From the IMG/VR virus record IMGVR_UViG_2636415832_000002: 21,926 bases of DNA, one strand, 5' to 3'. A model generated the notes under the pieces. That model worked only from the letters and a program-made list of their open reading frames with translations, had not been told where the DNA came from and searched no databases. Both the position numbers and the translations under genes were made by a program. Positions 1 through 21,926 of this stretch are shown here, piece by piece (position 1 is the first letter of the stretch; the number at the start of each line of letters is the position of its first letter). Source of the DNA: an uncultured virus (IMG/VR IMGVR_UViG_2636415832_000002). Taxonomy: Duplodnaviria > Heunggongvirae > Uroviricota > Caudoviricetes.

Positions 1-843
1 ACAAATACGGGTAGTTCACAACCTAACTTATCTGCAGCTAATGTGAAAAACTTTATTGTTCCATTACCAGATTTAAGAATTCAACACAAGGTTGTTCAAG
101 TTCTTGATATAGTTCAAGAACTTATCAATAAACGTAAACAACAACTTGAAGCATTAGACCAAGTAATACAAAGTATGTTTTTGGAGATGTTTGGTGATCC
201 AATTACAAATGTTAGGGGTTGGGAAATATCCCCGTGTAAAGATGTTGCTATTAAAATAGGTTCAGGCGCTACACCTAAAGGTGGTAACGCCAGTTATAAA
301 GATAGTGGTATCAGTTTGATTCGTAGTATGAATGTTTATAATAATAAATTTAGTTATAAAGATTTAGCTTTTATCGATGAAGAGCAAGCAGAAAAGCTAA
401 ACAATGTTGAGGTATTCAAAAATGATGTTTTACTTAATATTACCGGGGCATCTGTAGCTAGAAGTTGTATTGTTCCTACTGATATATTACCCGCAAGAGT
501 CAATCAGCATGTTGCTATTATCAGACCTAAAGAGGAAATGGTTAATTATATCTTTTTAAGCTATTTGTTTACAAATGAAATTTATCAAAGATATTTATGG
601 CAAATTGCTACAAACGGTGGGGCAACAAGAGAGGCTATAACAAAACAACAAATAGAAAAATTACCTGTAATTTTACCTCCACTTTACTTACAAAATGATT
701 TCGCAAGTAAAGTAGAACAAATAGAAAAACAAAAGTCATTAATGCAGTCAAGTATTGAAGAACTTGAAAATATGTATAATGCCTTGTTACAAAAAGCTTT
801 CAATGGAAATTTATTTAACGAGGAAAAGGTCTCTAATCTTTAA
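1..843 (+). CDS. hsdS: Type I restriction-modification specificity subunit (5'-truncated by window edge)
   Basis: Frame is open from base 1 (TNTGSSQPNLSAANVKNFIVPLP). Two PLP..Q coiled-coil conserved regions, EMFGDP, GSGATP, a TRD segment (NDVLLNITGASVAR, VNQHV) and the C-terminal LLQKAFNG motif. Directly upstream of hsdR. Confidence 0.95.
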   Translation, partial: TNTGSSQPNLSAANVKNFIVPLPDLRIQHKVVQVLDIVQELINKRKQQLEALDQVIQSMFLEMFGDPITNVRGWEISPCKDVAIKIGSGATPKGGNASYKDSGISLIRSMNVYNNKFSYKDLAFIDEEQAEKLNNVEVFKNDVLLNITGASVARSCIVPTDILPARVNQHVAIIRPKEEMVNYIFLSYLFTNEIYQRYLWQIATNGGATREAITKQQIEKLPVILPPLYLQNDFASKVEQIEKQKSLMQSSIEELENMYNALLQKAFNGNLFNEEKVSNL

Positions 844-861
844 TCAAAGGGAGGGGTAAAC

Positions 862-3800: not shown

Positions 3801-4200
3801 CAATAATAAGGCATTGACGGCAAAGGATGTAGAAATGCTTGAAAACATCTTATGGAACGAACTTGGAACAAAAGAAGATTATGAGAAAGACTTTGGTGAT
3901 ACTCCGATCACTAAACTCGTCCGTCAAATTGTTGGATTAGATCCTCAAGCAGCAAATGCAGCTTTTTCTGAGTTTCTATCAGAAGAACGATTAAATCTTA
4001 ATCAAATTCGATTTGTAAAATTGATTGTTGATTATGTCGTGAAAAATGGAACTCTTGATAAGAAGGTGCTGCAGCAAGAGCCGTTTAAGACTGTGGGAAG
4101 TATTGTTGAATTGTTTAAGGATAATATGGACGATGCAAAACGTATTATTGCAGTTATCGATGAGATTAATAGAAATGCTGAAGTGTTTACCGGGGCTTAA
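862..4200 (+). CDS. hsdR: Type I restriction endonuclease subunit R (EcoEI/EcoKI-like architecture)
   Basis: GTG start after GGAGGGG RBS. PD-(D/E)xK nuclease (VDYVL...VVEAKR), Walker A MATGSGKT, DESH box, LTATP and QMIGRGTR helicase motifs; 1112 aa. Confidence 0.97.
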   Translation: MSNFSFLKDKKQYKSFTNACVEAEKALIVSPAVSAIQSRRALELAVKWVYSFDSAAMIPYQDNLSSLIHDSNFLAIIDEDLLPLMKYIVKLGNVAVHTNAPISRDEAVLSLHHLHQFISWIDYCYSDEFTAGEFDESFLQFGEEKRVRPEELKDLYEQLSSKDKKLEEVMKENEHLRKSVTEKREHNTKDYNFQVDELKEFETRLKYIDLDLKIAGWEFNKDIIREYEVQGMPNNAGTGYVDYVLFGDNGKPLAVVEAKRTSKDPKIGRQQAKLYADCIETMTGTRPVIFYTNGFETYIWHDPYPPRKVSGFYNKEELSLLMDRREMKRPLKDIQINDSISNRYYQKEAILAVCDALTRNQRKSLLVMATGSGKTRTAISIVDVLARHNWVKNVLFLADRKTLLSQAYKNFNTLMPSLTICNLLDNKDNPEESRMVFSTYPTMMNAIDDVRRKDGKKLFTVGHFDLIIIDESHRSIYKKYRSIFDYFDGILLGLTATPKDEIDKNTYEVFDLENGVPTYAYELEQAVNDGYLVDYRTIETKMRFLEDGIHYDDLSDEEKEKYEETFDEEDFREDIDSSALNEWLFNDNTIDTVLKNLMEKGIRVEGGDKLGKTIIFAKNHNHAERITERFDILFPEYKGDFARVIDYSVNYYQTLIDDFSEVKKLPQIAVSVDMLDTGVDIPEVVNLVFFKKVRSKSKFWQMIGRGTRLCPDLLGIGEDKTHFLIFDYCGNFDFFRENPKGMDGQVGKSLTEKLFNAKVDIIRELQGLDYQTEEYVAHRNELVNVVTKEVLSLDNENFRVRQHLQYVEKFKNRTNWNTLSVLDTNEIKDHISPIIVPMNDDEFAKRFDLVMYTIELAKLQTRNATKPIRSVIKTAEALSKLGTIPQVLEAKPIIDKVLTEEFWDSADIFELDSVRAALRDLIKFIEKETQKIYFTNFQDEVLEVNENGPMYNVNDLKSYKKKVHHYLNQHKDQMAIYKLNNNKALTAKDVEMLENILWNELGTKEDYEKDFGDTPITKLVRQIVGLDPQAANAAFSEFLSEERLNLNQIRFVKLIVDYVVKNGTLDKKVLQQEPFKTVGSIVELFKDNMDDAKRIIAVIDEINRNAEVFTGA

Positions 4201-4255
4201 AAGCAAGTACTAATCAATTGTTACGACACTATGATTTAGAAGTAACAACATCATG

Positions 4256-4302
4256 AATAAGCAGAAGTGTTCCTCAGCAATAGGATCTTCTGCTTATTTT
4301 TA
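4256..4302 (+). terminator. Intrinsic terminator-like hairpin between hsdR and the CBASS operon
   Basis: AATAAGCAGAAG (4256-4267) pairs with CTTCTGCTTATT (4287-4298), running into a T tract. Confidence 0.7.
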
Positions 4303-4330
4303 TCCTGTTAAGGTTGTAGGTGATAAGTCA

Positions 4331-4948
4331 ATGGAGGAAAATATTTATGTGAAACAAGTAAAAAAACTAAGGAAAAAAGCGGAGAATTCAAGAAATGCTT
4401 ATTTTATGTTAACCAAAAGGTATAAATTTTATAGTAATTCGCTACATTTTTTTATCTTAGTTGGATCAACTATAATAGCCATTTTAACTTTTGCAAATTT
4501 TGATGTGTTTTTACCTCTAATAAAGGACCTAACAGATTCAACATACAAACTTTCTATTGGACTAATTGCATCTTCGGTATTTATCCTAACCGTAATTGAG
4601 GAATTTCTTAAATTGTCAAATAAGTCATCGGAATATGAAAGCTCAGGAAAACAATTAACATCTTTTATCAGATATGCGGATTCAGTAGAGAAACGAGAAA
4701 ATATTAATGATGAAGATTTGGCACAACTAACTCTTTACTACACATTAATATGTGAATCTACACCTATTATTCCAGATAAGTTCTTTTTTAAAGCCAAAAG
4801 ACAACTCTACAGAAAAATCGAGTTGAGTAAGGAATTGGAAAAAAATCCGGATACTATCTTATGGCTTTATAAAGTAAAGAGATTTAGAAAAGAGGTAAAT
4901 TCTCTGTTTAAGAAGGGAGATATTGATAAGAATGACGAGGGAAAATGA
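4331..4948 (+). CDS. Two-TM SLATT-like membrane effector of type IV CBASS
   Basis: ATG 4331 follows AGGTGA RBS; the ORF-track start at 4253 lies just before the terminator hairpin, so that extension would run through it. Helix-TM-TM-helix layout (SLHFFILVGSTIIAILTFA; LSIGLIASSVFILTVI). Overlaps the start of the QueC-like gene. Confidence 0.75.
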   Translation: MEENIYVKQVKKLRKKAENSRNAYFMLTKRYKFYSNSLHFFILVGSTIIAILTFANFDVFLPLIKDLTDSTYKLSIGLIASSVFILTVIEEFLKLSNKSSEYESSGKQLTSFIRYADSVEKRENINDEDLAQLTLYYTLICESTPIIPDKFFFKAKRQLYRKIELSKELEKNPDTILWLYKVKRFRKEVNSLFKKGDIDKNDEGK

Positions 4949-5507
4949 CTCCGTTCTAGTGTTAGCAAGTGGTGGCATTGATTCTACCGCTTTAATAGAA
5001 TATTACGCGTCAAAAAAATATAAGGTTTCTGCACTGTTTTTCGATTATGGACAGATTAGTCGTACGAAAGAGCTACAAGCCGTTAGGAAAGTATGTAGTT
5101 ATTATGGAATTAAACTAGAAGAAGCTCAATTAGGATTCACTTTAAAAAATACTAGTGGAGAATTTATAGGGAGAAATGCACTATTTATTACATCTGCATT
5201 TAATTTTTTACCAAATAATTATTCTAAAATATCTATAGGGATTCATTCAGGTACACCTTATTATGATTGCTCAAAGACGTTTGTTGAAGATTTTCAAAGA
5301 ATCGTAGATGGCTATTTTGAAGGAACAGTTTTAATTGATGTACCATTTGTTGAATTTACAAAGGGTCAAATTATTGAATATTGTTTACAAGAAAATGTGC
5401 CAATAAATCTTACATACAGCTGTGAAAATGGTTATGAAAAAAACTGTGGTAAGTGTTTATCTTGCTTAGATAGGAGAGAATTTCTTGGAAAAAGTGACCT
5501 TATGTGA
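4932..5507 (+). CDS. cap9: QueC-like PP-loop ATP pyrophosphatase, CBASS Cap9
   Basis: SGGIDS PP-loop, FDYGQ, RN motif, YYDC and the YSC...CGKCLSC zinc site. ATG 4932 after AAGGGAG. Operon context is CBASS rather than queCDEF. Confidence 0.88.
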   Translation: MTRENDSVLVLASGGIDSTALIEYYASKKYKVSALFFDYGQISRTKELQAVRKVCSYYGIKLEEAQLGFTLKNTSGEFIGRNALFITSAFNFLPNNYSKISIGIHSGTPYYDCSKTFVEDFQRIVDGYFEGTVLIDVPFVEFTKGQIIEYCLQENVPINLTYSCENGYEKNCGKCLSCLDRREFLGKSDLM

Positions 5508-6459
5508 AGAAAGAGTAATTAGTATAATTGAGACCAGTACTCCAGTATTAATACCTTCCTTTTCGAGCAAAGGTATAAAGCAGTTTGATAAGACTTTCTA
5601 TTCATTAAAAGATTACCTATCAGAAGTAACCTTATTTAGTGCCTACGATTTATATTACAAACTAGTTGATAAAGAGCTTATCTATGAAACTGATATGTTG
5701 TTTATAGATAGTGGTGGATATGAGGCATCAATTGAACCTGATTTATCCGAAATATATGGGTTTGGTCATAATCCTAATGATTGGAAAGAGGAATTATATC
5801 TTAATCAAATCGACACTTTGGAAGAACTTTCAAATATTGTATTAATAAACTATGATTATCCTAAGATCCCTTTTTCCGAACAAGTGAATAGAGCAAAATC
5901 AATTTTTACGAAGTATCCATCGTTTGCTAGTGATTTTTTAATAAAGCCTGATACAATATTTGGAAAATTCGATATGGAAAAACTTTTGGAGGATTTACAA
6001 CTCTGCTCTAATTTTTCTGTCATAGGATTTACCGAAAAAGAGCTAGGATTATCTGTTTTTGAAAGATGTAGAAACATTTATAAGATAAGAAAACGACTAA
6101 ATCAAATTGGGTTGAATAAACCTATTCATATTTTTGGCTGTTTAGATCCGTTAAATATCATAACTTACTTTTTATGCGGTGCCGATATTTTTGATGGATT
6201 ATCTTGGTTAAGATATGGATTCCAAAGTAACCGGCCTATTTATATTAATAGCTATGCTATTTCCAGTGGAAAGTGGATGTATACTAACGATGAAGTCAGG
6301 ATTATAACGTACCTAGAAAATATTAAGATACTAAATGCTTTAAAGCATAAAATGAAACTTTATATTAAAGAGAAGGATTTATCAGTGTTTGAATTAGACC
6401 AGCAGACCGAAACGGAAATATTCAACCTTATGGAAATAATTAAAGAAGAGGGGTTTTAA
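5485..6459 (+). CDS. cap10: TGT-like (tRNA-guanine transglycosylase fold) protein, CBASS Cap10
   Basis: TP..IPSFSSKG, FIDSGGY, IHIFG and GADIFDG motifs of the TGT TIM barrel. TTG start with AGGAG RBS; overlaps cap9. Confidence 0.85.
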   Translation: MEKVTLCEERVISIIETSTPVLIPSFSSKGIKQFDKTFYSLKDYLSEVTLFSAYDLYYKLVDKELIYETDMLFIDSGGYEASIEPDLSEIYGFGHNPNDWKEELYLNQIDTLEELSNIVLINYDYPKIPFSEQVNRAKSIFTKYPSFASDFLIKPDTIFGKFDMEKLLEDLQLCSNFSVIGFTEKELGLSVFERCRNIYKIRKRLNQIGLNKPIHIFGCLDPLNIITYFLCGADIFDGLSWLRYGFQSNRPIYINSYAISSGKWMYTNDEVRIITYLENIKILNALKHKMKLYIKEKDLSVFELDQQTETEIFNLMEIIKEEGF

Positions 6460-6460
6460 A

Positions 6461-7342
6461 TTGGGAGGAAGCGGTGGATGGAATGTACCCAGTAAAACAT
6501 TAAAAGAACTGTTAGAAGAAAAGGCAAAACAAAGGCAAAAAGAAAATGATAGAGAAATAAATGACTTTCTACAATCCTTGTTAAAAGAACTAAATAATCG
6601 TGATACTGAACAGGTACAAAAACATCTTAACACGTTAAAGGCTGCAATTGAAAAAGAAATTGACGGAGCTGTTGATCTTTTATTCGGTGGTTCATTAAGT
6701 AAACACACCTATGCACAGGGATTAAGTGACATTGATATGTTAGTACGAATTAACAATACTCAATTAGCTAATGCCAAACCACAAGAGGTCTTAGACTATT
6801 TTGCAAAACAAATAAAGACCAGATTACCAAAGACTGAAGTAAAAAAAGGAGATTTGGCTGTCACCGTTAAATTTAGCAGTGGATATGAGGTTCAATTATT
6901 ACCAAGTATAAAAACTGCCACTGGATATAAAATTGCAAAACCGGGTTTAAATGAATGGAGCAATGTTATCAAACCCAAAAAATTTGCTGAGAAATTAACT
7001 AGTGTTAATCAATCCAATGGTGGCAAGATAATTCCGATGATAAAGCTGTTTAAGATGATTAACGATCAATTTCCAAAGAAAGCCCAGCTTTCAGGTTATC
7101 ACATTGAATCACTTGCGATTGAAGCTTTTAAGAATAGACAAGTATATCCAAAGACAGTTAAAGAAGCCTTACAAAAGTTTTGCGAGCATTCAAGAACAAC
7201 GGTGTTAAGTCCCATCAAGGAGAGTACCGGCCAGTCTATACATGTAGACGATTATTTAGGAGGGAAAAATAGCGATATTAGAAGAAGAATCAGTAATAAT
7301 ATTAGAATCATACAAAAAAAATCGATAATGCAAGTTCAGTAG
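6461..7342 (+). CDS. cGAS/DncV-like nucleotidyltransferase (CD-NTase), CBASS cyclase
   Basis: Pol-beta motif FGGSLSKHT...SDIDML, a third-strand EVQLLP motif and SGYHIE. TTG start 2 nt after the cap10 stop. The C-terminus may be frameshifted (see findings). Confidence 0.92.
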   Translation: MGGSGGWNVPSKTLKELLEEKAKQRQKENDREINDFLQSLLKELNNRDTEQVQKHLNTLKAAIEKEIDGAVDLLFGGSLSKHTYAQGLSDIDMLVRINNTQLANAKPQEVLDYFAKQIKTRLPKTEVKKGDLAVTVKFSSGYEVQLLPSIKTATGYKIAKPGLNEWSNVIKPKKFAEKLTSVNQSNGGKIIPMIKLFKMINDQFPKKAQLSGYHIESLAIEAFKNRQVYPKTVKEALQKFCEHSRTTVLSPIKESTGQSIHVDDYLGGKNSDIRRRISNNIRIIQKKSIMQVQ

Positions 7343-11790: not shown

Positions 11791-13029
11791 TTATTCTCTC
11801 CTTTCTTCTTTGGGCGTGTACAGCTGTTTCGTGCGTAGTAGCGAATGCACGAGCCGTACAAGTTTTCTAGCGGTTAAGACGAGAGCGCGTTTGTGTTGAT
11901 GCTTGGTTACTTCTTGATATTTCTTTTGATAAAAGGCTTTATATTCGGTGTCATGTTTTCGTATGGCGTCTGAAGCTTGTACAAGATAATAGCGTAAATA
12001 CTTATTGCCGGTTCGCATCCGACTGGTGTTTTCAGACTCATATTCACCTGATTGATGCTGTGTCCATACGAAACCTGCGTATTTCGCTAAAGCGTGGTGA
12101 TCATCAAAACGATGGATATCGCCAATCTCTGCGATTAAGCCCGCTGCGTACACGGGACCGATGCCTTTTACTGATGTTAATGTTTGCGGAATACCTTTCA
12201 TCATGCGTTCGATTTCTTTATCTAAACGCTTTACTTGGGTTTCCATGTGCTGAATCGTGCTCAGAATGACTGATAAAGAAAGATTGACGGGATCCGCCAT
12301 CACTTTATCTAAACGATAGGAATTGCGAGCGAGCTGCTTGAGATATTTCGCCATCTCCTCTGGCGCCACAAAACGATTTTTGCCTTTCTCTTGTAGGAAC
12401 TCTACGAGCTCCTCTAAAGGCATATCGGCAATGATACCTGGATCTAGTTCTTCTATCACCGCGACACTTGTCGCACCGAATGTATCGGAGAACGGATTAT
12501 CTTGGCGTAAGCCACTAAATTTTAAGTACAGTTGATTTAACATGTATGTTTTATTACGGGCAATTTCATGGACTAAATGGAAGCGCGTGCGTGTTAATCG
12601 ACGAAGTGCATCGTAAATTAAGGTTTCTTGCATTTCATGTGGCAATCGTCCAAAGCGTAGATGATCCGCAATAACCCAGGCGTCTATTTTGTCGTTTTTC
12701 GGTAACATATCATAGCCCTTCTTAAAACGGGAAACTTTACGTGCGTTGAGCATATAAATCGCTGTTTGAAGATGTGGTACTACTTTCTTACATTGTGCTT
12801 TTAAGTAATGGGCAAGGTGCCAACTATATTGATCCGTGGCTTCCATCCCAATTTTTAATTGATCTGTTTGATTTTTTTCCGCTGTTCGTATAATTTTTTG
12901 AATCAAGGTGTCCGCACCTTCTACATCATTTCGAACAGAAAAATCAGCGAGTGTGTGACCCTCTCCATGCATGAAATGGACATGATGGGAGCGCAAACTC
13001 ACGTCAATACCGACTAGCATTTGTGACAT
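11791..13029 (-). CDS. IS110-family recombinase/transposase
   Basis: DEDD RuvC-like motifs GIDVS, MEAT, KNDKIDA; GIGPVYAAGLIAEIGD, YAG, catalytic QSG, GNKYLR, ARKL. ATG 13029 after AGGAGG. Confidence 0.97.
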   Translation of the reverse strand: MSQMLVGIDVSLRSHHVHFMHGEGHTLADFSVRNDVEGADTLIQKIIRTAEKNQTDQLKIGMEATDQYSWHLAHYLKAQCKKVVPHLQTAIYMLNARKVSRFKKGYDMLPKNDKIDAWVIADHLRFGRLPHEMQETLIYDALRRLTRTRFHLVHEIARNKTYMLNQLYLKFSGLRQDNPFSDTFGATSVAVIEELDPGIIADMPLEELVEFLQEKGKNRFVAPEEMAKYLKQLARNSYRLDKVMADPVNLSLSVILSTIQHMETQVKRLDKEIERMMKGIPQTLTSVKGIGPVYAAGLIAEIGDIHRFDDHHALAKYAGFVWTQHQSGEYESENTSRMRTGNKYLRYYLVQASDAIRKHDTEYKAFYQKKYQEVTKHQHKRALVLTARKLVRLVHSLLRTKQLYTPKEERRE

Positions 13030-13044
13030 GCCAATCACCTCCTA

Positions 13045-13625
13045 AAGGGGGAATTAATCAAGATACACGCAGACCTGGGTGCCCAGTCGAATCATCGATG
13101 TCTGCCTCGTGATGAGCAATCGCATGGAGAAGACCATAATTGAGCGCTACACTCTCTTCAATCATTGCGTCGCAGCCAGTGGTTAGACCTTCCATAATGA
13201 ACGATGGGTAGCAGGCTTATGAAGCAGTACACATGCGTGTCCGCAAGGAGGAAAAGCTATTTCCTGCGAATACCTTGTCCGTTCCATTGTCTCATGGGCA
13301 CAGTCTGAGTGAAATAAAAGTTGTCATAAAAAAGGACGAAGTACTGAAATGGAGCCTCCTCCATCCTTCGCCCTTGTGCTATAAAATTGGGTTAAAAAAG
13401 TGTATGACAAATAAACAGGCAAGCACCTGTGAGCAATACTTTAAGAAAAGATGATAAATAATGAAAATAGTGATTTCCTTTTGGCTCCCTCGGTCAAACC
13501 AGGGGCAAACAGGTAAAACATAAAACAGGAGTGAGGGAGCCAATTGGCGACCACTTCCTATAGGAAATCCAACAGATCCTCCAGCTGTCCGGATCAACTG
13601 GAAATTCTATCGGAAAGAGCTCTTA
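13045..13625 (-). ncRNA. Putative IS110 bridge RNA within the long upstream non-coding end
   Basis: About 600 nt non-coding end downstream of the junction promoter, containing segments that match the reconstructed target and donor sites. RNA boundaries not determined. Confidence 0.55.
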
Positions 13626-13651
13626 CTACTAATATACGAGGAGGAATATTA

Positions 13652-15466
13652 ATGGAGAAATCAAACTCTATAGAAAGAAAAAAGACAAGTATAGAAAATA
13701 GTATTGGGTTGTATTGCGAGCTGCTGATGGCCCTTAATACTGATTCGAATATACTAATAAATAATAAAGAAAACTATTACTACTTGGAGGGTAAAGGGAA
13801 TAATGGTGATTCTAGGGAAGATCCGTTATCAAACTTCATTATCGAACCGCTTTATTTTACCAAAAGTAAGAAGGGCATAACTAAGTTTATATTAAAGTTT
13901 ATCTCTAACAATCATTCAAAAGTAGTTGAGCTAGATGGTGAAACCTTAGCGATTAATCATTCCTTTAAGAAATTTTGTATAAATCAAGGCAAATTTAATT
14001 GGAAAGGTAAGCAGCATCATTTAGACGATTTAATCGATTTTATTATGGTTGGGGCCTCAAAAGAAATCACTATGATACCATATATAGGCTGGAATTCAAA
14101 AGAGAAAATTTGGATTTTCCCTACCCATGCATACTCTCAAGGAAATGTTTACTTTCCTAATAATGATGGGGTTTTTGAAATTGACAACAGTTATTTCAAG
14201 CTAGAGGTAGATAAGGATGATGAATATTTTATCCAACCGCATATTTCAACTGAACCATCTAAGAAGGAAATTGTTGAATACTTTAGAGATTTGAAAATGC
14301 TGTATAAGGATTATTCATATCTAGGTTTTGGATATATAGCAAGTTCATTTCATGTTGACGCTATTACTGAAAAAACGGACTTTTTCCCATTTTTATATAC
14401 TCACGGGAAAGCTGGACATGGAAAAAGCGCATTTATTAATATTATCTCTAAATTTTCGGGGATGAAGGTATCACTAACAAATCCTCCATCTTTAGATGGA
14501 TTAAGAAAAGGTATTAGTGGAAAAGCAAGTCTTCCGTTTATTATCGATGAAGCAGAAGATAAAAATGATAGGTCGCGTGGGAGAGATTTCTTTAAATATT
14601 TGTCCGATACTATAAAGGTTATTTACATGCGTTCTATATTAAAAAGAGGACATAAAGATGAAGAAAGATTGGTTTATTATCCGATAAGAGGTACGTTATT
14701 TTTAGGTGGAGAGGTGTTGACTAGTGTTGCATCAATCATACAACGTTCCATTCTTATTGATTCTTCCAAAATTACTAAGAATGAAGATGTATATAAGAAA
14801 GTTAAGGACAGTCAAATGCCTTTTTGGATAGGTCAATTTCTTATGCGAACTTCTCATGTATGGCAATCATATTTTTTAGACTTATATGATGAAATTACAG
14901 CTTATTTTATTAAACAGGGGTGGACAAATATCGATGTCCGTATACGCTGCAACTATGCTATATTCTTAGCTGGTGCTTTAGCTGCCATTAAACATTTGAA
15001 TAATTATTTTGAAATGGAGCTAATTTCGGAAGATGAGTTGAAAACTATATATCTTTTTATATATGAAGAAATGAAGGAAACAAAAAGAATGACGGAAAGT
15101 GATCATCCGTCAATGCAATTCTTAATGAAAATTGGATTACTTGCGAATAAAGGTGTTTTAAGTAAAGACATTGATTATAAGTGTATCAAGCAGAAGGATG
15201 GCCATGTTTATTTGTATTTAGCTCCTTCTAACGTCATAGAAGCATACAAGAGTAATGAAAAAACTCCGTTTTATACAACGAGCCATAAAGCAATTAAAGA
15301 CCTTCAAAATCAATCATTTTTTTGGGGGACTCGAAAACTTCGTATTGGACAAAGTCAGCCTACTGCATGGATTATACAGCTTACTCACCCTAATAACCCA
15401 GAGTTAATTAAGGAGGGGATAATACATCCCGATCTACCGGATACAATGGTTTATTTTTATAATTAA
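13652..15466 (+). CDS. P-loop NTPase, probable mobile-element replication helicase/initiator (primase-associated helicase-like)
   Basis: True ATG at 13652 after AGGAGG. Walker A GKAGHGKS, Walker B IIDEAE, IIQRS arginine-finger-like motif; 604 aa; followed by a repeat-rich AT-rich region. Confidence 0.7.
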   Translation: MEKSNSIERKKTSIENSIGLYCELLMALNTDSNILINNKENYYYLEGKGNNGDSREDPLSNFIIEPLYFTKSKKGITKFILKFISNNHSKVVELDGETLAINHSFKKFCINQGKFNWKGKQHHLDDLIDFIMVGASKEITMIPYIGWNSKEKIWIFPTHAYSQGNVYFPNNDGVFEIDNSYFKLEVDKDDEYFIQPHISTEPSKKEIVEYFRDLKMLYKDYSYLGFGYIASSFHVDAITEKTDFFPFLYTHGKAGHGKSAFINIISKFSGMKVSLTNPPSLDGLRKGISGKASLPFIIDEAEDKNDRSRGRDFFKYLSDTIKVIYMRSILKRGHKDEERLVYYPIRGTLFLGGEVLTSVASIIQRSILIDSSKITKNEDVYKKVKDSQMPFWIGQFLMRTSHVWQSYFLDLYDEITAYFIKQGWTNIDVRIRCNYAIFLAGALAAIKHLNNYFEMELISEDELKTIYLFIYEEMKETKRMTESDHPSMQFLMKIGLLANKGVLSKDIDYKCIKQKDGHVYLYLAPSNVIEAYKSNEKTPFYTTSHKAIKDLQNQSFFWGTRKLRIGQSQPTAWIIQLTHPNNPELIKEGIIHPDLPDTMVYFYN

Positions 15467-15483
15467 TCCGTGTAGCTTAGTCT

Positions 15484-15760
15484 TGTTCCAAAAATTCAAG
15501 AACAATTGGAACAAAAGAATTTCAGCAATATCAAGGTTTCCGAAGGCATTGTTCTATTGCTCCCAAAATTTTTGTTTAGTGCTTCCGTATATATTAGCTT
15601 TATTTAAAAGGCAAATAGTTAAATTTTTGCTTAATATTAAATAAACTATTGGAAGTTTGGAACAAAATTAATAAAAAGTAATAAAACCCTAATAACACGT
15701 GGGTTTACGGTTATTTATTATGTTCTAAATACGATTAAAATTCGGAACATAATTGGAACA
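15484..15760. repeat. Iteron-like (G/A)GAACA repeat cluster, candidate origin of replication
   Basis: GGAACA at 15508, 15659, 15744 and 15755; AGAACA at 15499; inverted TGTTCC/TGTTCT at 15484, 15550 and 15721; these flank an AT-rich core at ~15590-15650. Confidence 0.55.
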
Positions 15761-15956
15761 TTTAGTGTTTCGATTGGATCTGCCGAAGTTGATGCATGAT
15801 CGTTCGGTTTTTCAAAGTAATGGGATAACGTGAATGTGTTTACAAGTCATCTCTTATGAACCTTCGGAAATTAGAAACTAACGTAAATAATTTTTTATAT
15901 GGTATTAAAATACAGTTTTATTTGATCTAAACTGATTTTATATTAATAAAAAAAGG

Positions 15957-16018
15957 GAAAGCCCCATCAAATAAATGTACGATTTCAAAATGTGCGTATT
16001 TATTTGATGGGGTTTTTC
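15957..16018. terminator. Long hairpin, probable bidirectional terminator
   Basis: GAAAGCCCCATCAAATAAAT pairs with ATTTATTTGATGGGGTTTTT. Confidence 0.75.
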
Positions 16019-16041
16019 TATTAAACAATTAATTTTGAAAG

Positions 16042-16548
16042 GTGGAAATCAGGGTGTTTAGTGAAAAATACTCTTTATATTTTATTGATGAGTGTCATGA
16101 AGGAAACTACGAAAAAATGTTAAAAGATTTTCGGTCAGCAGAACAATTGAGCGATTATCGTTGTGCGATTTATATTGTTTCTCTACCGGAAATTTATAGC
16201 AGAATTGAAGGGATCGCAGGTGGTGAACAACCTCATGAATGGGTTTATGCTGTGAAAGGGGAATATATAGAAATGTATGATGAAGAAACTGATGAAGAAT
16301 ATCTAGAGTACTATTTTAACATATTACGGGAAAAGGATGGTTCCCCTGATTACAGCGATGCATATTATTCCTTGCCTTCGTCGTACAAGTTATTAGTTAA
16401 TATCGTAGAAGAGCTAGTTACTTATAGACATAGGGCATTTCGAATCATGGATGCTATTACAGACTTTGATGATAGCCTTTTTGAAGTATTGATTCAAGCA
16501 TTAAAAATACGGAGGGAAAAAGACGCTGAGTTGTTCCCAAATCTATAA
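16042..16548 (+). CDS. Acidic hypothetical protein of mobile elements
   Basis: 168-aa ORF with protein-like composition; start uncertain; no family recognised with confidence. Confidence 0.65.
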   Translation: MEIRVFSEKYSLYFIDECHEGNYEKMLKDFRSAEQLSDYRCAIYIVSLPEIYSRIEGIAGGEQPHEWVYAVKGEYIEMYDEETDEEYLEYYFNILREKDGSPDYSDAYYSLPSSYKLLVNIVEELVTYRHRAFRIMDAITDFDDSLFEVLIQALKIRREKDAELFPNL

Positions 16549-16683
16549 TAAATTAATACTAATTTTGGATCTGTAAATAAGTTCATTATCCCAATTTTTG
16601 ATCTTTCTTTTAACGGGAACCAACTATAATAATGTATAAGGATAAAGTATGTAGCCTAAAAATATTTTATAAGATAAAAAGGT

Positions 16684-16929
16684 GTGATGGATATGACTAC
16701 AGATTTGGCAGCTTCCATAGTAAAAGCCATTTCTTATGCTCGATATGGCTTAGAACAGTATTTTCGTGGTTTAAATCCTAAGATACAAGTTGAGAAATAT
16801 GAAAGTAGGATTGAAATTGTATCAAAAAAACTTCATGAAGGTGGTCTTATTGAAAAACAGTATCAGCCATTAAAGGTCAATGAAATGAGTTTCGCTGAGA
16901 TAGTGAAACGATCCTCTTATTATTTATGA
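16684..16929 (+). CDS. Hypothetical protein, possibly truncated by a frameshift
   Basis: AAGGTG RBS and TATAAT at 16625. An overlapping frame continues to 16991 (MRRVILLLWVEEEINNRKAEM). Confidence 0.5.
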   Translation: MMDMTTDLAASIVKAISYARYGLEQYFRGLNPKIQVEKYESRIEIVSKKLHEGGLIEKQYQPLKVNEMSFAEIVKRSSYYL

Positions 16930-17030
16930 GAAGAGTGATTTTATTACTATGGGTAGAAGAAGAAATCAATAATCGAAAAGCTGAAATGTAATCTTCATAA
17001 GCGCTTAAATCATTGATAATGCTCCTTAGC

Positions 17031-17065
17031 AAAAAGAGAAGCACATATGTATGGGCTTCTTTTTT
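17031..17065. terminator. Bidirectional terminator between convergent genes
   Basis: AGAAGC.CATA / TATG.GCTTCT stem flanked by A and T tracts. Confidence 0.65.
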
Positions 17066-17134
17066 CTGGGTATAAATTGTCACCAGCGATTCTATTTCAA
17101 AATTACTTAATGTATCTAGATGGCCCTTAGAGCT

Positions 17135-17884
17135 TTAGCAGTCCTCTTCAAGTCTTTTTAAAGCTCTAGCATAGGCTGCATTTCGCTCCTTTTCTTCCCA
17201 ATCAAGATTTTGAAGTATACGTTGCCAATAAATATTCCCTTTATCGGCGTAAGACTTTGCTGTCTCCCGCCATAAAAAAGCTTCTGCCTCTTCTAAAACG
17301 ATAAATGATCTGCTTTGAATTTTGAAATGGGGCATACCCTCTTCTTTTATTAAATTGTATATCGTGGCAGGACTTGATCTGAAATACTCGGCAGCTTCTT
17401 TTACTGTTAACACTGTTCTTCCATAGTAACGTGTTTTTTCTTTTTTTGCTTCCGCATATAAATCCTTAGAAAATTTATCAAGTTCCTCTCTTATTATTTC
17501 CCTTAGTATATCTTCAATCATTTTTGAATCCTCCTTGTTCTTTTCAAAAGCTAGAATTTCAGATTGTACTTTCGCAACAGCCCATTTGTCTTCTGGATCC
17601 GACCAGCCCAATTCTTTGTATTCAGAAACTGTATCCTTAATCGCATTTTCATCGAAGACTATTCTTCCTTTTATTTTTAAATGCGGCATTGCCCTTGAGT
17701 ATGTTAATTGCCGCAATACAGAGGAACCGATTCCAGTGGAACTTACAGCTTCTTTCATTGTTATAAACCTTTTTGAAGTAGTTTTTTTCATTTGGGACAA
17801 ATGGTTTCTAAGCATGAGCATTTCTTCATGAATGATTTTGATTATTAAGGATTCAAAAGAGTAGCTATTCTCCTTATTTTCCAT
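17135..17884 (-). CDS. Protein with two excisionase-like (HTH_17/MerR-like) DNA-binding domains
   Basis: ITMKEAVSSTGIG...MPHLKIKGRIVF and LTVKEAAEYFRSSPATIYNLIKEEGMPHFKIQSRSFI; GAGGTG RBS. Confidence 0.85.
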   Translation of the reverse strand: MENKENSYSFESLIIKIIHEEMLMLRNHLSQMKKTTSKRFITMKEAVSSTGIGSSVLRQLTYSRAMPHLKIKGRIVFDENAIKDTVSEYKELGWSDPEDKWAVAKVQSEILAFEKNKEDSKMIEDILREIIREELDKFSKDLYAEAKKEKTRYYGRTVLTVKEAAEYFRSSPATIYNLIKEEGMPHFKIQSRSFIVLEEAEAFLWRETAKSYADKGNIYWQRILQNLDWEEKERNAAYARALKRLEEDC

Positions 17885-18087
17885 AGTTCACCTCTTAATT
17901 TAGAATATTATGTATAAATTATAAATCAAATTATAGAGCATTAGTTCTCGGTGTGTGGTTAGTTTGATATGTGCTGTATAATATAAATAGATTATATGGT
18001 AAATTTTAACTAGGTAAAATAAATTCTACTTGGGATTCAGAACCCAGTTCATAAAAGTATTTATAAAGCAAATTTAAATATTAATAA

Positions 18088-18264
18088 GGAGCTGATGAGA
18101 AGAATCTAGACCCTTTTTATGACGAATTGGAAGAATCATTGAAGAAGGAACTCCCCACATTACTTAATGGCGTTAATGCTTTAGATATTGGTTGTGGTAG
18201 GAGATGGTTTTCAAGATACTTTAATAACGATATTAATTTAAGTGTTCTTAGCTTCTTGGCATAG
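18088..18264 (+). pseudogene. Fragment of a class I SAM-dependent methyltransferase
   Basis: Short frame encoding NALDIGCGRRWFSRYF (motif I at 18181-18198), bounded by stops and with no clear start. Confidence 0.55.
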
Positions 18265-18400
18265 ACAAGAGCAGGGAAAACATCGAATTTTGCTTATCTA
18301 ATGCCCAAAGTTCTAATCTTAATTTTGAGGTAAGGGTTTATCACTAATGACCAACTATCAATAAAAAGTAGATAAATGCATTTTTTAAATCCTATTGTTA

Positions 18401-18409
18401 TGGTAACAT
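18401..18409 (+). promoter_or_regulatory. Candidate extended -10 promoter for the ncRNA-RT transcript
   Basis: TG-G-TAACAT; would put +1 near 18416, just before the first hairpin. No good -35. Confidence 0.35.
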
Positions 18410-18415
18410 TTTATA

Positions 18416-18694
18416 TGTAGGTATTAGCCTAAAGCGTGTGTATCTAGATACACATGCGTCCCGATAATCGGTATAGGGCATTCGTTTCGATGATTTATAA
18501 TATAATTATAGACGTTGAAACTGAATGGAGGATAACGCTAATGAATCTATTAATGCAACTATTAATTGACTTATCAGTTTATCCAGCAGTCTTATGCAAT
18601 ATAGGACTGTTAAACTTTAACCTATCATTTTTGTTAGGGAGGCGGTTGAAAACCAATTCCTCCTTGTCCACCGCCGCAATATAATGGAGGAATT
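18416..18694 (+). ncRNA. Putative RT-associated structured RNA (~280 nt)
   Basis: Near-contiguous stems found by eye: 18434-18457, 18458-18479, 18479-18527, 18530-18584, 18585-18611, 18621-18638 and 18641-18675, many with G-U pairs, ending at the RT RBS. Confidence 0.7.
18541..18684 (+). CDS. Candidate 47-aa hydrophobic small ORF inside the RT leader
   Basis: GGAGG at 18527-18531, 9 nt, then ATG; MNLLMQLLIDLSVYPAVLCNIGLLNFNLSFLLGRRLKTNSSLSTAAI; stop 2 nt before the RT RBS. Confidence 0.3.
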   Translation: MNLLMQLLIDLSVYPAVLCNIGLLNFNLSFLLGRRLKTNSSLSTAAI

Positions 18695-18700
18695 ACAGTA

Positions 18701-20128
18701 ATGAGTACAGATGATTCTTTTAAAAAATTTGTAACTAGAAATAAAATTAAAGAGACTTTTGAACTGTATGTTGCTCAAAAGACTGACACTTTAACTGATG
18801 AACACCAAGTTAAAGTCCCAGAAGGTCTTGATGGTATAGATTACAAGTTATTTCAAAAAACTCTTGCTCATCAAGTTGATACAATCTTCAAAAGGATACA
18901 ACGAGGAAATTACTACTTTTATCCGCTGAGAGAAGTAAAGATTTCAAAAGATCCATTATTGAATATTAAGGATGCTGAAAAGCAAGGGAAAATAAGAAAA
19001 TTGTCAATTGCTACTATTAGAGATGTTATAATTCAAAAAATGTTATATGACTATCTAAGTCCATTTACTGAAGAGAAATTTACTGAATTACCATATGTTA
19101 GTTTTGCGTATCGTAAAAATGTAAATGCTCAGAAGGCAGCACAGAAAGTATTCAATGATCTAAATGATCAGTATATTTATGCTCTTGATGCTGATTTAAA
19201 AGGATTTTTTGATACTATTCCTCATGATAAGCTTTTTAAACAAGTTCTGACTTTTTTTAAAGATATGCCTGAAACTCACAAGCTTCTTTATCGTTTTATT
19301 CATATTGATATCGGATACAAAAGTAAGAATAAAAATAAGGTAATTAGAGAAAAGCGTAAAGAAGGTATTCCACAAGGTGGGATAATTTCCGGAATGCTAG
19401 CAAATATATATCTTCATCAATTTGATTTCTGGATAATGACAGTTTTAAAAGCTAAATATGATATAAGGTATACAAGGTATGCTGATGATTTTATCATATT
19501 AGCAAAAAATAATGACAGTATTACAAATATTCAAGAGGAATGTAAGGAATTCCTTGAAAATATTGGGCTAGTACTACACCCAGACCCCCAAAAAACAAAA
19601 ATATGTACACTAACTAATAGTAGAAGTTTAGATTTTGTTGGATTCAAAATTTCACAAAAGTATATTGGTGTCAAAGATAGTAATATAAAGAAATTTAAAA
19701 TAAGAATAGAAGAAATTTTAAAAACTACAGACTTTAAAAAGAAGAAGTCACTAGAGCTTTTAAAATTAAGGATGAGTTATAAGTACTTCGGTAATGAATA
19801 TAAGAGTTTCAAGTGTAAAACCTGCGGAAATTTTGAAAAATCGAGAAATTGGATGAGATTTTTTTTAGTGATTACAGATACAAATCAGTTAAAGAATTTA
19901 GATAAATGGGTCTATAAATCCATAAACTATTATTATTATAAGAAAACAGGGGAAAGGCTTCCTAAAAATGCGTTAAAGCAATTGGATTTCCCTTCTTTAG
20001 AATTACTTTATTATAACTATCGAAAACAGTTAAGCTATGAAAATGAGTATTGCCAATGTAATGCTATAGATAAAAATCTTTATGCCACTAAAAATCCTTA
20101 TAATGAGTTATTCAATATTTATACATAG
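18701..20128 (+). CDS. Stand-alone reverse transcriptase (group II-like / UG-DRT-type), probably defence-associated
   Basis: GLDGID (RT0), RKLSIATIRD, SFAYR, DADLKGFFDTI, GIPQGG, YADD and LDFVGF motifs; thumb NWMRFF...LDKWV; extra CKTC and CQC cysteines; GGAGG RBS. Confidence 0.95.
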   Translation: MSTDDSFKKFVTRNKIKETFELYVAQKTDTLTDEHQVKVPEGLDGIDYKLFQKTLAHQVDTIFKRIQRGNYYFYPLREVKISKDPLLNIKDAEKQGKIRKLSIATIRDVIIQKMLYDYLSPFTEEKFTELPYVSFAYRKNVNAQKAAQKVFNDLNDQYIYALDADLKGFFDTIPHDKLFKQVLTFFKDMPETHKLLYRFIHIDIGYKSKNKNKVIREKRKEGIPQGGIISGMLANIYLHQFDFWIMTVLKAKYDIRYTRYADDFIILAKNNDSITNIQEECKEFLENIGLVLHPDPQKTKICTLTNSRSLDFVGFKISQKYIGVKDSNIKKFKIRIEEILKTTDFKKKKSLELLKLRMSYKYFGNEYKSFKCKTCGNFEKSRNWMRFFLVITDTNQLKNLDKWVYKSINYYYYKKTGERLPKNALKQLDFPSLELLYYNYRKQLSYENEYCQCNAIDKNLYATKNPYNELFNIYT

Positions 20129-20220
20129 TTAGACTTTTTTGATATAAACTCCTCCTTTGGGTGAATTAACATTATCTAAAATAACTTCTTTTTATAAGGA
20201 TCCCTTAAACACAATGATCT

Positions 20221-20257
20221 AGGCACATTTCAGGAGAAGAAATGTGCCTTCTGTTTT
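20221..20257 (+). terminator. Intrinsic terminator between the RT and OLD genes
   Basis: AGGCACATTTC-aggagaa-GAAATGTGCCT, a perfect 11-bp stem followed by TCTGTTTT. Confidence 0.75.
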
Positions 20258-20312
20258 ATAAATCATTTAATTGCAAATACATCTATTGAAATGGATTGGG
20301 GGAAGAAAGTAA

Positions 20313-21926
20313 ATGTTATTGAAAAAGGTTAAAATTTATAATTATAAGAAGTTCGAGGACTTTTCTTTAGATTTTGATAGTAACTATTCAATAATGATAG
20401 GGAATAATGGGGCTGGTAAATCAACATTTTTAGAAGCAATTCACTTAGCGTTGACAGGGACAATCAATGGGAAACCAATCTTTTATGAGTTATCTCCCTA
20501 TATATTTAATAGAAAAATTGTTAACAAGTTTATCGAGGAAGTAAAAAATGATAATAAAAAAACTCCACCTGAAACAATAATCGAGTTATACTTCGGAGAG
20601 TCAGAAGACTCTGACCTCAATGAATTATTGGGTATGGAGAATAGCGAAAATATGAATGTGCCGGGATTTGTATTCTCTATTAAATTTAATGAGCATTATC
20701 GAGGGGAATATCAGCAGTATATTGAGAATGAAAATTTTATACATATTCCTACTGAGTACTATACAGTTGAATGGAAAAGTTTCGCAGGATTAACAATAAC
20801 TACAAGATCGATTCCTATAAAATCACACCTTATTGACTCCACTACTACAAGTCTAGCTACTAGTTCACAAAAGTATATTATGAAGATTATCTCAGATGTA
20901 TTAGATGAAAAACAAAAAGCTAATTTAGCAGTTCTCTACCGAAGCTATAAGGAAAAGTTTGGTGAAGATCCTAATATAGCCTCTATAAATGAAGTGTTAA
21001 ACGAGAAGAAAAATCTTATGTTAGACGACACTAGGAATTTATCAATATCGTTGGATGTTACTCAAAAGGCTACTTGGGAATCTGCAATAGCTGCCTTCTT
21101 AGACAATATCCCTTTCGATTATATCGGTAAAGGGGAGCAAAATGTTATAAAGACTACACTATCTATTGGAAACAGGAAGCCTAAAAGAAATTTAATACTA
21201 ATAGAGGAACCTGAGAGTCATCTGTCATTTTCAAACATGAGAATCTTATTAGAAAAAATAATATCAGAGTGTTCTGATCAACAATTACTTATTACTACTC
21301 ATAGTTCATATGTATTAAATAAAATGGCAATGGAAAATGTTATTCTTCTTGGTGAAAATAGAAGTGGGAAGCTAAATCAATTGCCAAAGGATACAAGAGA
21401 CTATTTTCAAAAACTACCGAACTATGACACTTTAAGATTTATTTTATCTAAGAGGGTAATATTGGTCGAGGGGCCTGCAGATGACTTAATCATCCAAAAA
21501 GCCTACCATCAAAGATATAATAAACTTCCGTTAGATGACGGGATAGATGTCATATCAGTAAATGGGCTATCATTCAAAAGATTTTTGGATATAGCAAAGT
21601 TACTAAATATAAATACTGTAGTAGTTACAGATAACGATCATGATTATGAAAAGAATATTAACAACAAATATAGAGACTATACGGGTGGTACAATTAAATT
21701 GTGTTTTAGTACAAATAATGAGCTAAATACGTTAGAACCACAGGTGTTAAAATGTGATGCTGGTAATTATGATAAATTAAAAACTATACTAGGAAAACAA
21801 GATAAGTCTGAAGAAGAGTTGTTAGAATTTATGCTGAAAAACAAAACTGATTGGGCGCTAAAAGTATTTTTAAACAGCGAAACACAATTAAATTTTCCGG
21901 AGTATATAAATGATGCCATCCAATAA
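20313..21926 (+). CDS. OLD-family ATP-dependent endonuclease (ABC ATPase plus TOPRIM), Gabija GajA-like
   Basis: Walker A GNNGAGKS, signature GKGEQ, Walker B IEEPESH, H-loop TTHS, TOPRIM VEGPADD and DND. Any partner gene would lie outside the window. Confidence 0.9.
   Translation: MLLKKVKIYNYKKFEDFSLDFDSNYSIMIGNNGAGKSTFLEAIHLALTGTINGKPIFYELSPYIFNRKIVNKFIEEVKNDNKKTPPETIIELYFGESEDSDLNELLGMENSENMNVPGFVFSIKFNEHYRGEYQQYIENENFIHIPTEYYTVEWKSFAGLTITTRSIPIKSHLIDSTTTSLATSSQKYIMKIISDVLDEKQKANLAVLYRSYKEKFGEDPNIASINEVLNEKKNLMLDDTRNLSISLDVTQKATWESAIAAFLDNIPFDYIGKGEQNVIKTTLSIGNRKPKRNLILIEEPESHLSFSNMRILLEKIISECSDQQLLITTHSSYVLNKMAMENVILLGENRSGKLNQLPKDTRDYFQKLPNYDTLRFILSKRVILVEGPADDLIIQKAYHQRYNKLPLDDGIDVISVNGLSFKRFLDIAKLLNINTVVVTDNDHDYEKNINNKYRDYTGGTIKLCFSTNNELNTLEPQVLKCDAGNYDKLKTILGKQDKSEEELLEFMLKNKTDWALKVFLNSETQLNFPEYINDAIQ

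Follow-up and report, generated by a model that had tools for sequence, protein, structure and literature searches.

Introduction

Why a free-standing reverse transcriptase (RT) of group II intron type should lie in a defence island behind a long structured RNA is the question raised by a 21,926-nt stretch of DNA from an uncultured virus (Caudoviricetes; IMG/VR record IMGVR_UViG_2636415832_000002), the whole of which is referred to here as the window. On its + strand an uninterrupted RT open reading frame (ORF) of 475 aa (18701-20128) is directly preceded by a structured non-coding RNA (ncRNA) of about 285-300 nt (18416-18700). A sequence-only reading had taken the pair for a candidate RT defence system of a kind that it could not assign to a described class. 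The analysis reported here found that the leader is a real, conserved and covarying RNA linked to the RT, and that the RT is, as judged from alignment, tree and profile scores, a distinct group-II-intron-like (G2L) clade belonging to no described type of defence-associated RT (DRT). The interpretation that we favour, and regard as somewhat probable, is that the two form an effector-less ncRNA and RT defence module which would work like DRT2 and DRT9, its RT being drawn from the group II intron lineage and not from the UG/Abi group.

To our knowledge, every RNA-templated defence RT described so far (DRT2, DRT3, DRT9, DRT10) falls within class 2 of the UG/Abi lineage, and retrons are a lineage of their own. 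In a 2021 review, G2L4 and G2L5 are the only characterised members of the G2L lineage; the review adds four further clades and finds defence genes, among them Gabija, close to 25% of G2L RTs (PMC8632793). Because G2L RTs in defence islands were already noted in that review, the novelty here lies in the RNA partner and in the definition of the family; no description of a partner RNA for any G2L RT, or of this RT family, was found in the literature searched, preprint supplements aside. Defence systems consisting of an ncRNA and an RT are known as a kind; what is new here is the lineage from which the RT comes, together with its RNA and its C-terminal domain.

Results

A conserved and covarying RNA precedes the RT gene

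Relatives of the RT were recovered by protein search at 62-93% identity from Planococcaceae-type sequences, at about 50% from Bacillus and Anaerobacillus, and at 35-40% from cyanobacteria and Chloroflexota. The DNA of the locus was compared for L170 (RT 94% identical to that of the window), L086 (79%, partial), L083, L084 and L085 (about 70%), L171 (50%), the more divergent L167 (41%) and L172 (39%), and the still more distant L168, L087, L088 and L003. Every relative locus obtained has a non-coding stretch 5' of the RT, of 311 to about 1000 nt. Between the window and L083 or L085 the leader is 87-88% identical, compared with 76% for the ORF, 59-60% for its third codon positions and a background of about 60% in both flanks.

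The leader is also unusually stable, the 301 nt at 18400-18700 folding at -90.1 kcal/mol against -63.7 +/- 4.5 kcal/mol in 100 dinucleotide shuffles (z -5.87), none of which did as well. The earlier proposal of a strongly structured leader thus stands, with about nine hairpins in the minimum-energy fold and eight nested helices plus one pseudoknot in the curated model. The helices run along the + strand as follows, with the pairs that are changed on both sides among relatives given in brackets. P0 (18418-18431, UAGGU/GCCUA; 3/5) comes from the curated structure and is followed by the 10-bp hairpin P1 (18434-18457; 7/10), present in the minimum-energy and curated folds alike, by P2 (18460-18478, CCC/GGG), which is 100% paired with two of its three pairs invariant, and by P3 (18479-18527; 16/22), a long hairpin of 22 pairs. 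P4 (18530-18584, GGAUAA/UUAUCC; 4/6) closes a 43-nt loop, and the conserved UGGAGGAU lies immediately 5' of it and runs into it. The 3' part consists of the 9-bp hairpin P5 (18587-18609; 8/9, 98.6% paired), the hairpin P6 (18621-18638; 6/6), and P7 (18641-18675, GGCGGU/ACCGCC; 3/6), which has a 23-nt loop.

A covariance model, R1, was built from four close leaders and the curated nested structure with the pseudoknot left out. It matched the window at 18402-18703 (347.8 bits) and gave full-length matches directly 5' of the RT in eight other loci, among them L171 (74.8 bits, E 3e-17), L167 (39.4 bits) and L172 (28.9 bits), in each of which the match is on the strand of the RT. R1 found nothing in two true UG17 loci, one group II intron locus, and the cyanobacterial and fusobacterial-type loci L168, L087 and L003; the upstream regions of these distant members are long and fold well in their own right (z -3.3 and -6.05). 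When the nine leader sequences were aligned, 91.9% of cells were paired and 48 of the 67 pairs had changed on both sides, none of 500 shuffles reached any of five covariation measures, and shifting the 3' partners by one to three columns lowered pairing to 37-44%. Conservation and covariation of the leader had been set beforehand as the test of this RNA, and both are present.

Within the P4 loop, 12-nt tandem units starting with UAAU occupy 18539-18566 (TRF period 12, 2.3 copies, score 42). UAAU falls at loop positions 3, 15 and 27, the leader of L084 is short of exactly one 12-nt unit, and UAAU recurs in the P4 loop of L171 and L172. The enrichment is modest, its count being reached by 41 of 2000 shuffles in the window and by 84 in L171 and being not significant in L167 and L086. 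The units are a candidate template region, and their role as a template is speculation.

A 76-aa ORF within the leader (18454-18684) was considered and rejected, given that open frames vary between 36 and 78 codons among the leaders, without conserved length, and are at chance level; on the sense strand 11/500 shuffles match it in the window and 105-371/500 do so in relatives. No Neo-like stop-free unit was found when the leader frames of the window and relatives were compared with shuffles.

A pseudoknot covers the ribosome-binding site of the RT

The P7 loop and the tail of the leader form an H-type pseudoknot (18657-18692, + strand), in which UUCCUCC (18657-18663) pairs with GGAGGAA (18686-18692), the Shine-Dalgarno sequence of the RT. 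In all nine sequences loop and tail can form a duplex of -14 to -18 kcal/mol, which in L171, L167 and L172 is made up of other letters; shuffled tails equal this energy in 0-4 of 500 cases. The pseudoknot columns are 93.4% paired, with both-side changes in three of seven pairs and only 2/500 shuffles as high; this pairing had no part in how the alignment was made, because the structure in R1 is without the pseudoknot. Run on single sequences, a generic pseudoknot finder could not tell the leaders from their shuffles, 1-49 of 100 of which were equally good, so that support for the pseudoknot comes from its position and its covariation. The coincidence with the ribosome-binding site holds for the window and its close relatives; in L171 the 3' strand ends 18 nt before the annotated RT start, and in L172 this strand and the ribosome-binding site are different, another G-rich stretch lying closer to the start codon. 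Because the pseudoknot covers the ribosome-binding site, folding of the RNA, and perhaps binding of the RT, probably also limits translation of the RT.

A stem-loop-tail of the same topology is seen in the cyanobacterial locus L168 (1400-1465), where the stem CAACAGG/CCUGUUG carries a loop, AAGAGUACCU, complementary to a tail that ends 21 nt before the start codon. Here 7/100 shuffles are as good and R1 has no match; this is a hint only.

The RT is a distinct clade beside those of group II introns

That the RT is intact, with a YADD active site, was borne out. The ORF matches Pfam RVT_1 (E 1.3e-30) and carries the motifs RYADDF, NAQKA and FVG, and the catalytic residues D163, D165, Y260, A261, D262 and D263 are invariant across a 20-member family alignment (A1). 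Equally invariant are C372, C375, C451 and C453, which lie within the last 136 residues. In a search of 1.84 billion representatives this C-terminal region matches no more than 56 clusters, each time at the C-terminal end of proteins of comparable length, and it forms a Cys4 domain specific to the family. At the very end of the protein a helix predicted by AlphaFold (466-471) is followed by Tyr474; a Tyr is among the last three residues in 13/13 Bacillota-type rows of A1, the RT of L172 ends in Ser-Ser, and most members of the family have one of these two residues at their very end. According to a recent preprint, a C-terminal Ser or Tyr after a conserved helix is the priming residue of DRT9 and DRT10 (10.64898/2026.06.29.735271).

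The AlphaFold model of the RT (pLDDT 87.4) has its best fold match in the group II intron enzyme GsI-IIC RT (PDB 6ar1; template modelling (TM) scores 0.70/0.79), followed by DRT9, G2L4 and DRT2, and the DRT9 structure 9vma (TM 0.70/0.67) is the best match outside introns. Sequence comparison with solved structures likewise puts a group II intron RT in the lead (7uim, 89 bits), ahead of DRT9 (62.8 bits), DRT2 (39.9 bits) and G2L4 (9d4s, 39.8 bits), and the next-best sequence relatives of the family bear the GIIM maturase domain. A quick maximum-likelihood tree was made from 35 rows, comprising 20 family members, 13 group II RTs and two UG17 RTs, without DRT2, DRT9, G2L4 or CRISPR-RT references. 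The family forms a single clade (SH-aLRT 96), 12 intron RTs form another (SH-aLRT 98), and the UG17 pair stands apart on a branch of length 2.15. The phylogenetic check proposed by the sequence-only reading therefore places the family beside, not inside, the sampled group II intron RTs.

Intron RNA is absent as well. The earlier statement that no domain V/VI follows the ORF held, there being no Rfam group II intron match in 17800-20400 at E up to 1, none across the window at gathering score, and none in six of seven relatives' loci at E up to 0.1. The exception is L084, in which a domain V/VI-like match to RF00029 (3604-3680, +; 35.9 bits against a gathering score of 40) lies 670 nt past the RT stop on the RT strand. 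Before it stand a short ORF and a GGGTACCTGTG-like repeat in three copies, the 670-nt interval being unrelated sequence, the short ORF included, and the match is probably a separate intron remnant. In addition, the RT scores 197.9 bits on TIGR04416, the group II RT/maturase equivalog, whose cut-off is 300, and 174 bits on PDLC01136 versus about 305 for true intron RTs. It is single-copy in its 4.87-Mb genome, where the only other RT is of ordinary group II type and 31% identical.

The family is rare, being found in about 1% of genomes searched: 4/370 in its own family, 2/401 class-wide and 4/401 of another order (E up to 1e-50). A contig scan was dominated by group II introns, with three family loci among the best 80, and a scan of metagenomes yielded a single short locus.

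The RT belongs to no described defence type

Of the named DRT models, RT_UG17 of PADLOC (PDLC03754) matches the RT best, at 170.5 bits over positions 3-357 of 429, and all 20 family members tested match it. The score was calibrated over 301 genomes of the phylum, in which the true UG17 RTs of two loci reach 520.7 and 488 bits over positions 1-429, dozens of multicopy group II intron RTs reach 140-190 bits over positions of about 5-360, and the ordinary group II RT elsewhere in the genome of the window reaches 150.9 bits. Four GIIM-bearing group II RTs score 184-189 bits on UG17 and 113-145 bits on Drt9, a model on which the RT scores 112.7 bits (no true DRT9 RT was among the controls). Since ordinary group II RTs score in the same range, the UG17 and Drt9 matches are generic.

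DRT10, which corresponds to UG17, is described in two preprints as tripartite, comprising an ncRNA, a SLATT-5 gene and the RT (10.1101/2025.10.16.682844; 10.64898/2026.04.29.721553). Its ncRNA is subtype-specific, lies 5' of SLATT and templates 7-nt tandem repeats; UG17 was formerly named G2L3 (PMC8632793), and DRT11 corresponds to UG5. A SLATT_5 gene (124 bits) lies directly 5' of the RT in both UG17 control loci, and a SLATT gene is found in none of ten family loci, comprising the window and nine relatives, among ORFs of at least 80 aa within about 1.5-3 kb of the RT.

The scores on other models are lower still, at 97.5 bits for Drt2 (NF041746; cut-off 390) and 72.6 bits for retron_St85 (cut-off 235). 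Retron RTs carry the motifs NAxxH and VTG, and the NAQKA and FVG of the present enzyme agree with the earlier claim that it has no retron motifs. Equally upheld were the claims that there is no CRISPR array, none being found in the window, and no template repeat/variable repeat (TR/VR) pair of a diversity-generating retroelement, no TR/VR-like long direct repeat being found in 14000-21926. The sole Cas1-related match is to the RT domain of an RT-Cas1 fusion model in PADLOC, and no Rfam family matches the leader RNA at gathering score in a search of the whole window. By these profile comparisons the RT belongs to no described DRT type, as the sequence-only reading had supposed, its scores on UG17, Drt9 and Drt2 all being typical of ordinary group II intron RTs.

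Transcription signals and boundaries of the unit

A putative extended -10-like promoter element, TGGTAACAT, can be read at 18401-18409 (+), and in the model-based alignment it is in register with TGnTATAAT-type boxes of L171, L167 and L084. A simple two-hexamer promoter scan did not pick it up. Similarity of the relatives to the window begins around 18401-18409, and the start at 18416 given for the leader at the outset fits transcription beginning about 7 nt past TGGTAACAT. Leader and ORF are contiguous, without a terminator in between.

RNA libraries do contain leader sequence. The contigs of four public sequencing runs were compared with 18300-20300, the word shares of sequence-bearing runs being small (0.05-0.10). 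Three short contigs from three studies consist wholly of leader at 95-99% likeness, namely 327 nt (18401-18694), 241 nt (18438-18675) and 233 nt (18448-18668); two of the libraries are metatranscriptomes and the RNA label of the third run was guessed. These RNA-library contigs do not extend over the RT ORF. A fourth contig, which comes from a relative and may derive from DNA, extends from 18380 as far as the ORF and into it.

On the 3' side, sequence in common with the closest relative continues past the stop codon for 20129-20146 (+), where the BLAST block ends and beyond which the DNA is unalignable. The terminator claimed earlier for the unit exists as a terminator-like hairpin with T-run at 20221-20249 (+), found by a hairpin scan and repeated with the same loop and a similar stem in L170; the spacer separating it from the RT stop is not conserved even in the 94%-identical L170, whose hairpin lies at another distance from the stop. 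We read 18386-20146 as a module in two parts, self-contained and about 1.76 kb long.

Two side observations belong here. On the - strand, 20160-20270 gives a match to isrC (RF01387; 38.7 bits against a gathering score of 39, E 3e-06), which lies inside the non-conserved spacer between the RT and gajA. In the fusobacterial and viral-contig relatives L087 (2930-3000) and L003 (3930-4000), a perfect hairpin with eight T's stands right before the RT start codon, where their leader RNA would terminate just 5' of the ORF; the upstream stretch of about 500 nt is 88% identical between these two.

A mobile module in defence islands

The defence island seen by the sequence-only reading is confirmed. The window contains type I restriction-modification genes (HsdS, HsdR; 1-4200), a CBASS-like operon (4253-7342, +) with a two-transmembrane effector (307 bits), a QueC-like protein (271 bits), a TGT-like protein (418 bits) and an oligonucleotide cyclase (428 bits), an IS110 transposase (11791-13038) and, downstream of the module and outside it, GajA of Gabija (20313-21926, +; PADLOC 636.6 bits). 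GajA has 537 aa and is followed by an overlapping 379-aa ORF (L186, G000:C10 2903-5639, corresponding to the window from 20313 on), which is called GajB by position alone; GajB proper is presumably longer than this.

Neighbours of the RT unit differ between loci. GajA accompanies the RT only in the closest relative, and the others have LmuB (L083), QatD and QatC (L085), PDC-S31 and PDC-M68B (L167), a PemK toxin (L171), a TacA antitoxin (L168) and a phage-type integrase (L087). Because none of them recurs, the unit is the RNA and the RT alone, and the claim that there is no obvious effector gene, to which the ten loci without SLATT also speak, was sustained. A genome found in a search centred on another order (G917; the order is that of G735, searched apart from the window's own) shares 18365-20146, that is RNA and RT, at 95.0% over 1787 nt, and a second block on the same strand, 20275-23010 with GajA and GajB, at 97.4% over 2736 nt; an unalignable spacer separates the two blocks, and the upstream flank is unrelated to that of the window. 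The module is horizontally mobile and found in defence islands.

Other features of the island are of separate interest. A 640-aa ORF in mid-island (13544-15466, +) is without a Pfam, PADLOC or NCBIfam match and could be an unknown defence gene. The intergenic DNA at 18100-18270 (+) reads as the truncated N-terminus of a class I S-adenosylmethionine methyltransferase (LDIGCG-type motif), which gives the impression of a gene cut at this point, and in L172 a Methyltransf_23 fragment also lies upstream of the RNA.

Discussion

How the module might work, and what else it could be

In the mechanism that we consider somewhat probable, an RNA of about 290 nt would be transcribed from its own extended -10-type promoter and fold into eight helices and a pseudoknot whose 3' strand is the ribosome-binding site of the RT. 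The RT would bind the leader RNA and copy an internal single-stranded segment of it into complementary DNA (cDNA), and cDNA synthesis would underlie an anti-phage response that needs no separate effector gene. Binding of the RNA, its role as template and the role in defence are inferred by analogy with DRT2 and DRT9. Two leads, Tyr474 after its predicted helix and the UAAU units of the P4 loop, point towards a chemistry of the DRT9 or DRT10 kind. A more specific form of the scheme, which we offer tentatively and think doubtful, is that the group II intron lineage independently yielded an RNA-templated immune RT which, primed by its own C-terminal Tyr474, copies a short piece of the P4 loop over and over. 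Three tandem 12-nt UAAU units lie in that loop (18539-18574), and copying would follow a cycle like that of telomerase or DRT10, in which the product is aligned, extended and slipped back, and because the module is without an effector gene the repetitive DNA would itself be the antiviral agent.

The rival to be taken most seriously, though we judge it unlikely, is that the leader is only a cis-regulatory 5' untranslated region that, bound by the RT or through its own folding, hides the ribosome-binding site and sets the level of the RT, the substrate of which would lie elsewhere, for example in DNA repair as for G2L4. Group II intron RTs regulate their own level by binding at domain IVa, and in the window and its close relatives the 3' strand of the pseudoknot is indeed the Shine-Dalgarno sequence, in a leader that continues into the ORF without a terminator; the free-standing G2L4, moreover, acts in double-strand-break repair. 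However, eight conserved helices over about 290 nt far exceed what occlusion of a ribosome-binding site needs, L171 and L172 depart from that arrangement in the ways described above, the resemblance to G2L4 is weak in score and active site (YADD versus YIDD), and a patchy distribution at about 1% in defence islands ill suits a housekeeping repair enzyme. Less probable again is that the unit is a group II intron which has degenerated or departs from the usual form, or else a selfish retroelement of another sort, with the upstream RNA as the remnant of the intron or element RNA and an RT that serves the mobility of the element. The nearest relatives in sequence and fold are intron RTs, the unit moves in one piece between distant genomes, and L084 has its RF00029 match, all of which would fit such an element; it is opposed by the lack of Rfam group II intron RNA in the window and six other loci, by the TIGR04416 score below cut-off and the single copy, by the unrelated sequence with a short ORF that fills the 670 nt in L084, and by the separation of the RT clade from the sampled intron RTs.

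Two further alternatives would attach the unit to a known system. It is very improbable that the RT and its RNA are an accessory of the adjacent Gabija and not autonomous. RT unit, GajA and GajB do follow one another on the same strand in both the window and G917, which share both blocks, but GajA is beside the RT in none of the other eight loci, and the unalignable spacer and unequal identities of the blocks are as expected of modules joined separately. A divergent, SLATT-less member of DRT10/UG17 is scarcely credible, even though RT_UG17 is the best named DRT model, is matched by all 20 family members and represents a group once called G2L3: the RT scores within the intron RT range and far below true UG17 RTs, the SLATT_5 gene of both controls has no counterpart in the ten family loci, UG17 is separate in the tree, and R1 is silent on the UG17 loci.

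Several points weigh against an effector-less, RNA-templated defence module. The covariation alignment was fitted to the model structure, and most compensatory changes come from only three divergent lineages. The evidence from RNA libraries consists of assembled contigs, one with a guessed label, and such contigs give neither ends nor levels of a transcript. A C-terminal Tyr or Ser is absent from the RT of L167, which has the RNA, and from that of L168. The neighbours in L172 and L084 are housekeeping or uninformative, and the window and L170 are not independent as cases of defence neighbours. A pseudoknot that covers the ribosome-binding site also fits a purely regulatory leader, and G2L4, the one characterised free-standing G2L RT, acts in repair and not in defence.

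Were the defence module real, it would mean that domesticated enzymes of group II introns had also arrived at the ncRNA and RT solution, and the long-uncharacterised G2L group would gain a mechanism that can be tested. At about 1.8 kb the RT-RNA pair would also be a compact addition, from Bacillota, to the enzymes of interest for programmable DNA synthesis, and the position of the pseudoknot on the ribosome-binding site suggests that RNA folding and RT dosage are directly coupled.

Comparison with known RT systems

By sequence and fold the RT is closest to the RT/maturases of group II introns, with which it has YADD and the N-terminal extension in common. It differs from them in that no ribozyme domains were found in the window and the six loci concerned, in being single-copy, and in having the Cys4 C-terminal region in place of the D/En domains. 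Being nearest to group II intron RTs and having no intron RNA, it has the two features by which G2L RTs are recognised. From G2L4 it is set apart by the weak match to 9d4s and by its YADD active site, G2L4 having YIDD.

In its architecture the module resembles DRT9 (UG28) and DRT2 (UG2), in which a promoter is likewise followed by a structured ncRNA and the RT, no dedicated effector gene is present and the setting is a defence island. The RT here is nevertheless from another lineage, and the leader is without a U-tract template or a stop-free repeat unit. With DRT10 it shares the upstream ncRNA, and the short repeats in the RNA loop, with UAAU every 12 nt, recall the A-B-A' template of that system; the DRT10 ncRNA, however, is 137 nt long as against about 290 nt here, where the RNA lies directly before the RT and there is no SLATT gene. 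Finally, the hydroxyl-bearing C-terminal residue that follows a predicted helix in the RT has its parallel in the priming residue of DRT9 and DRT10.

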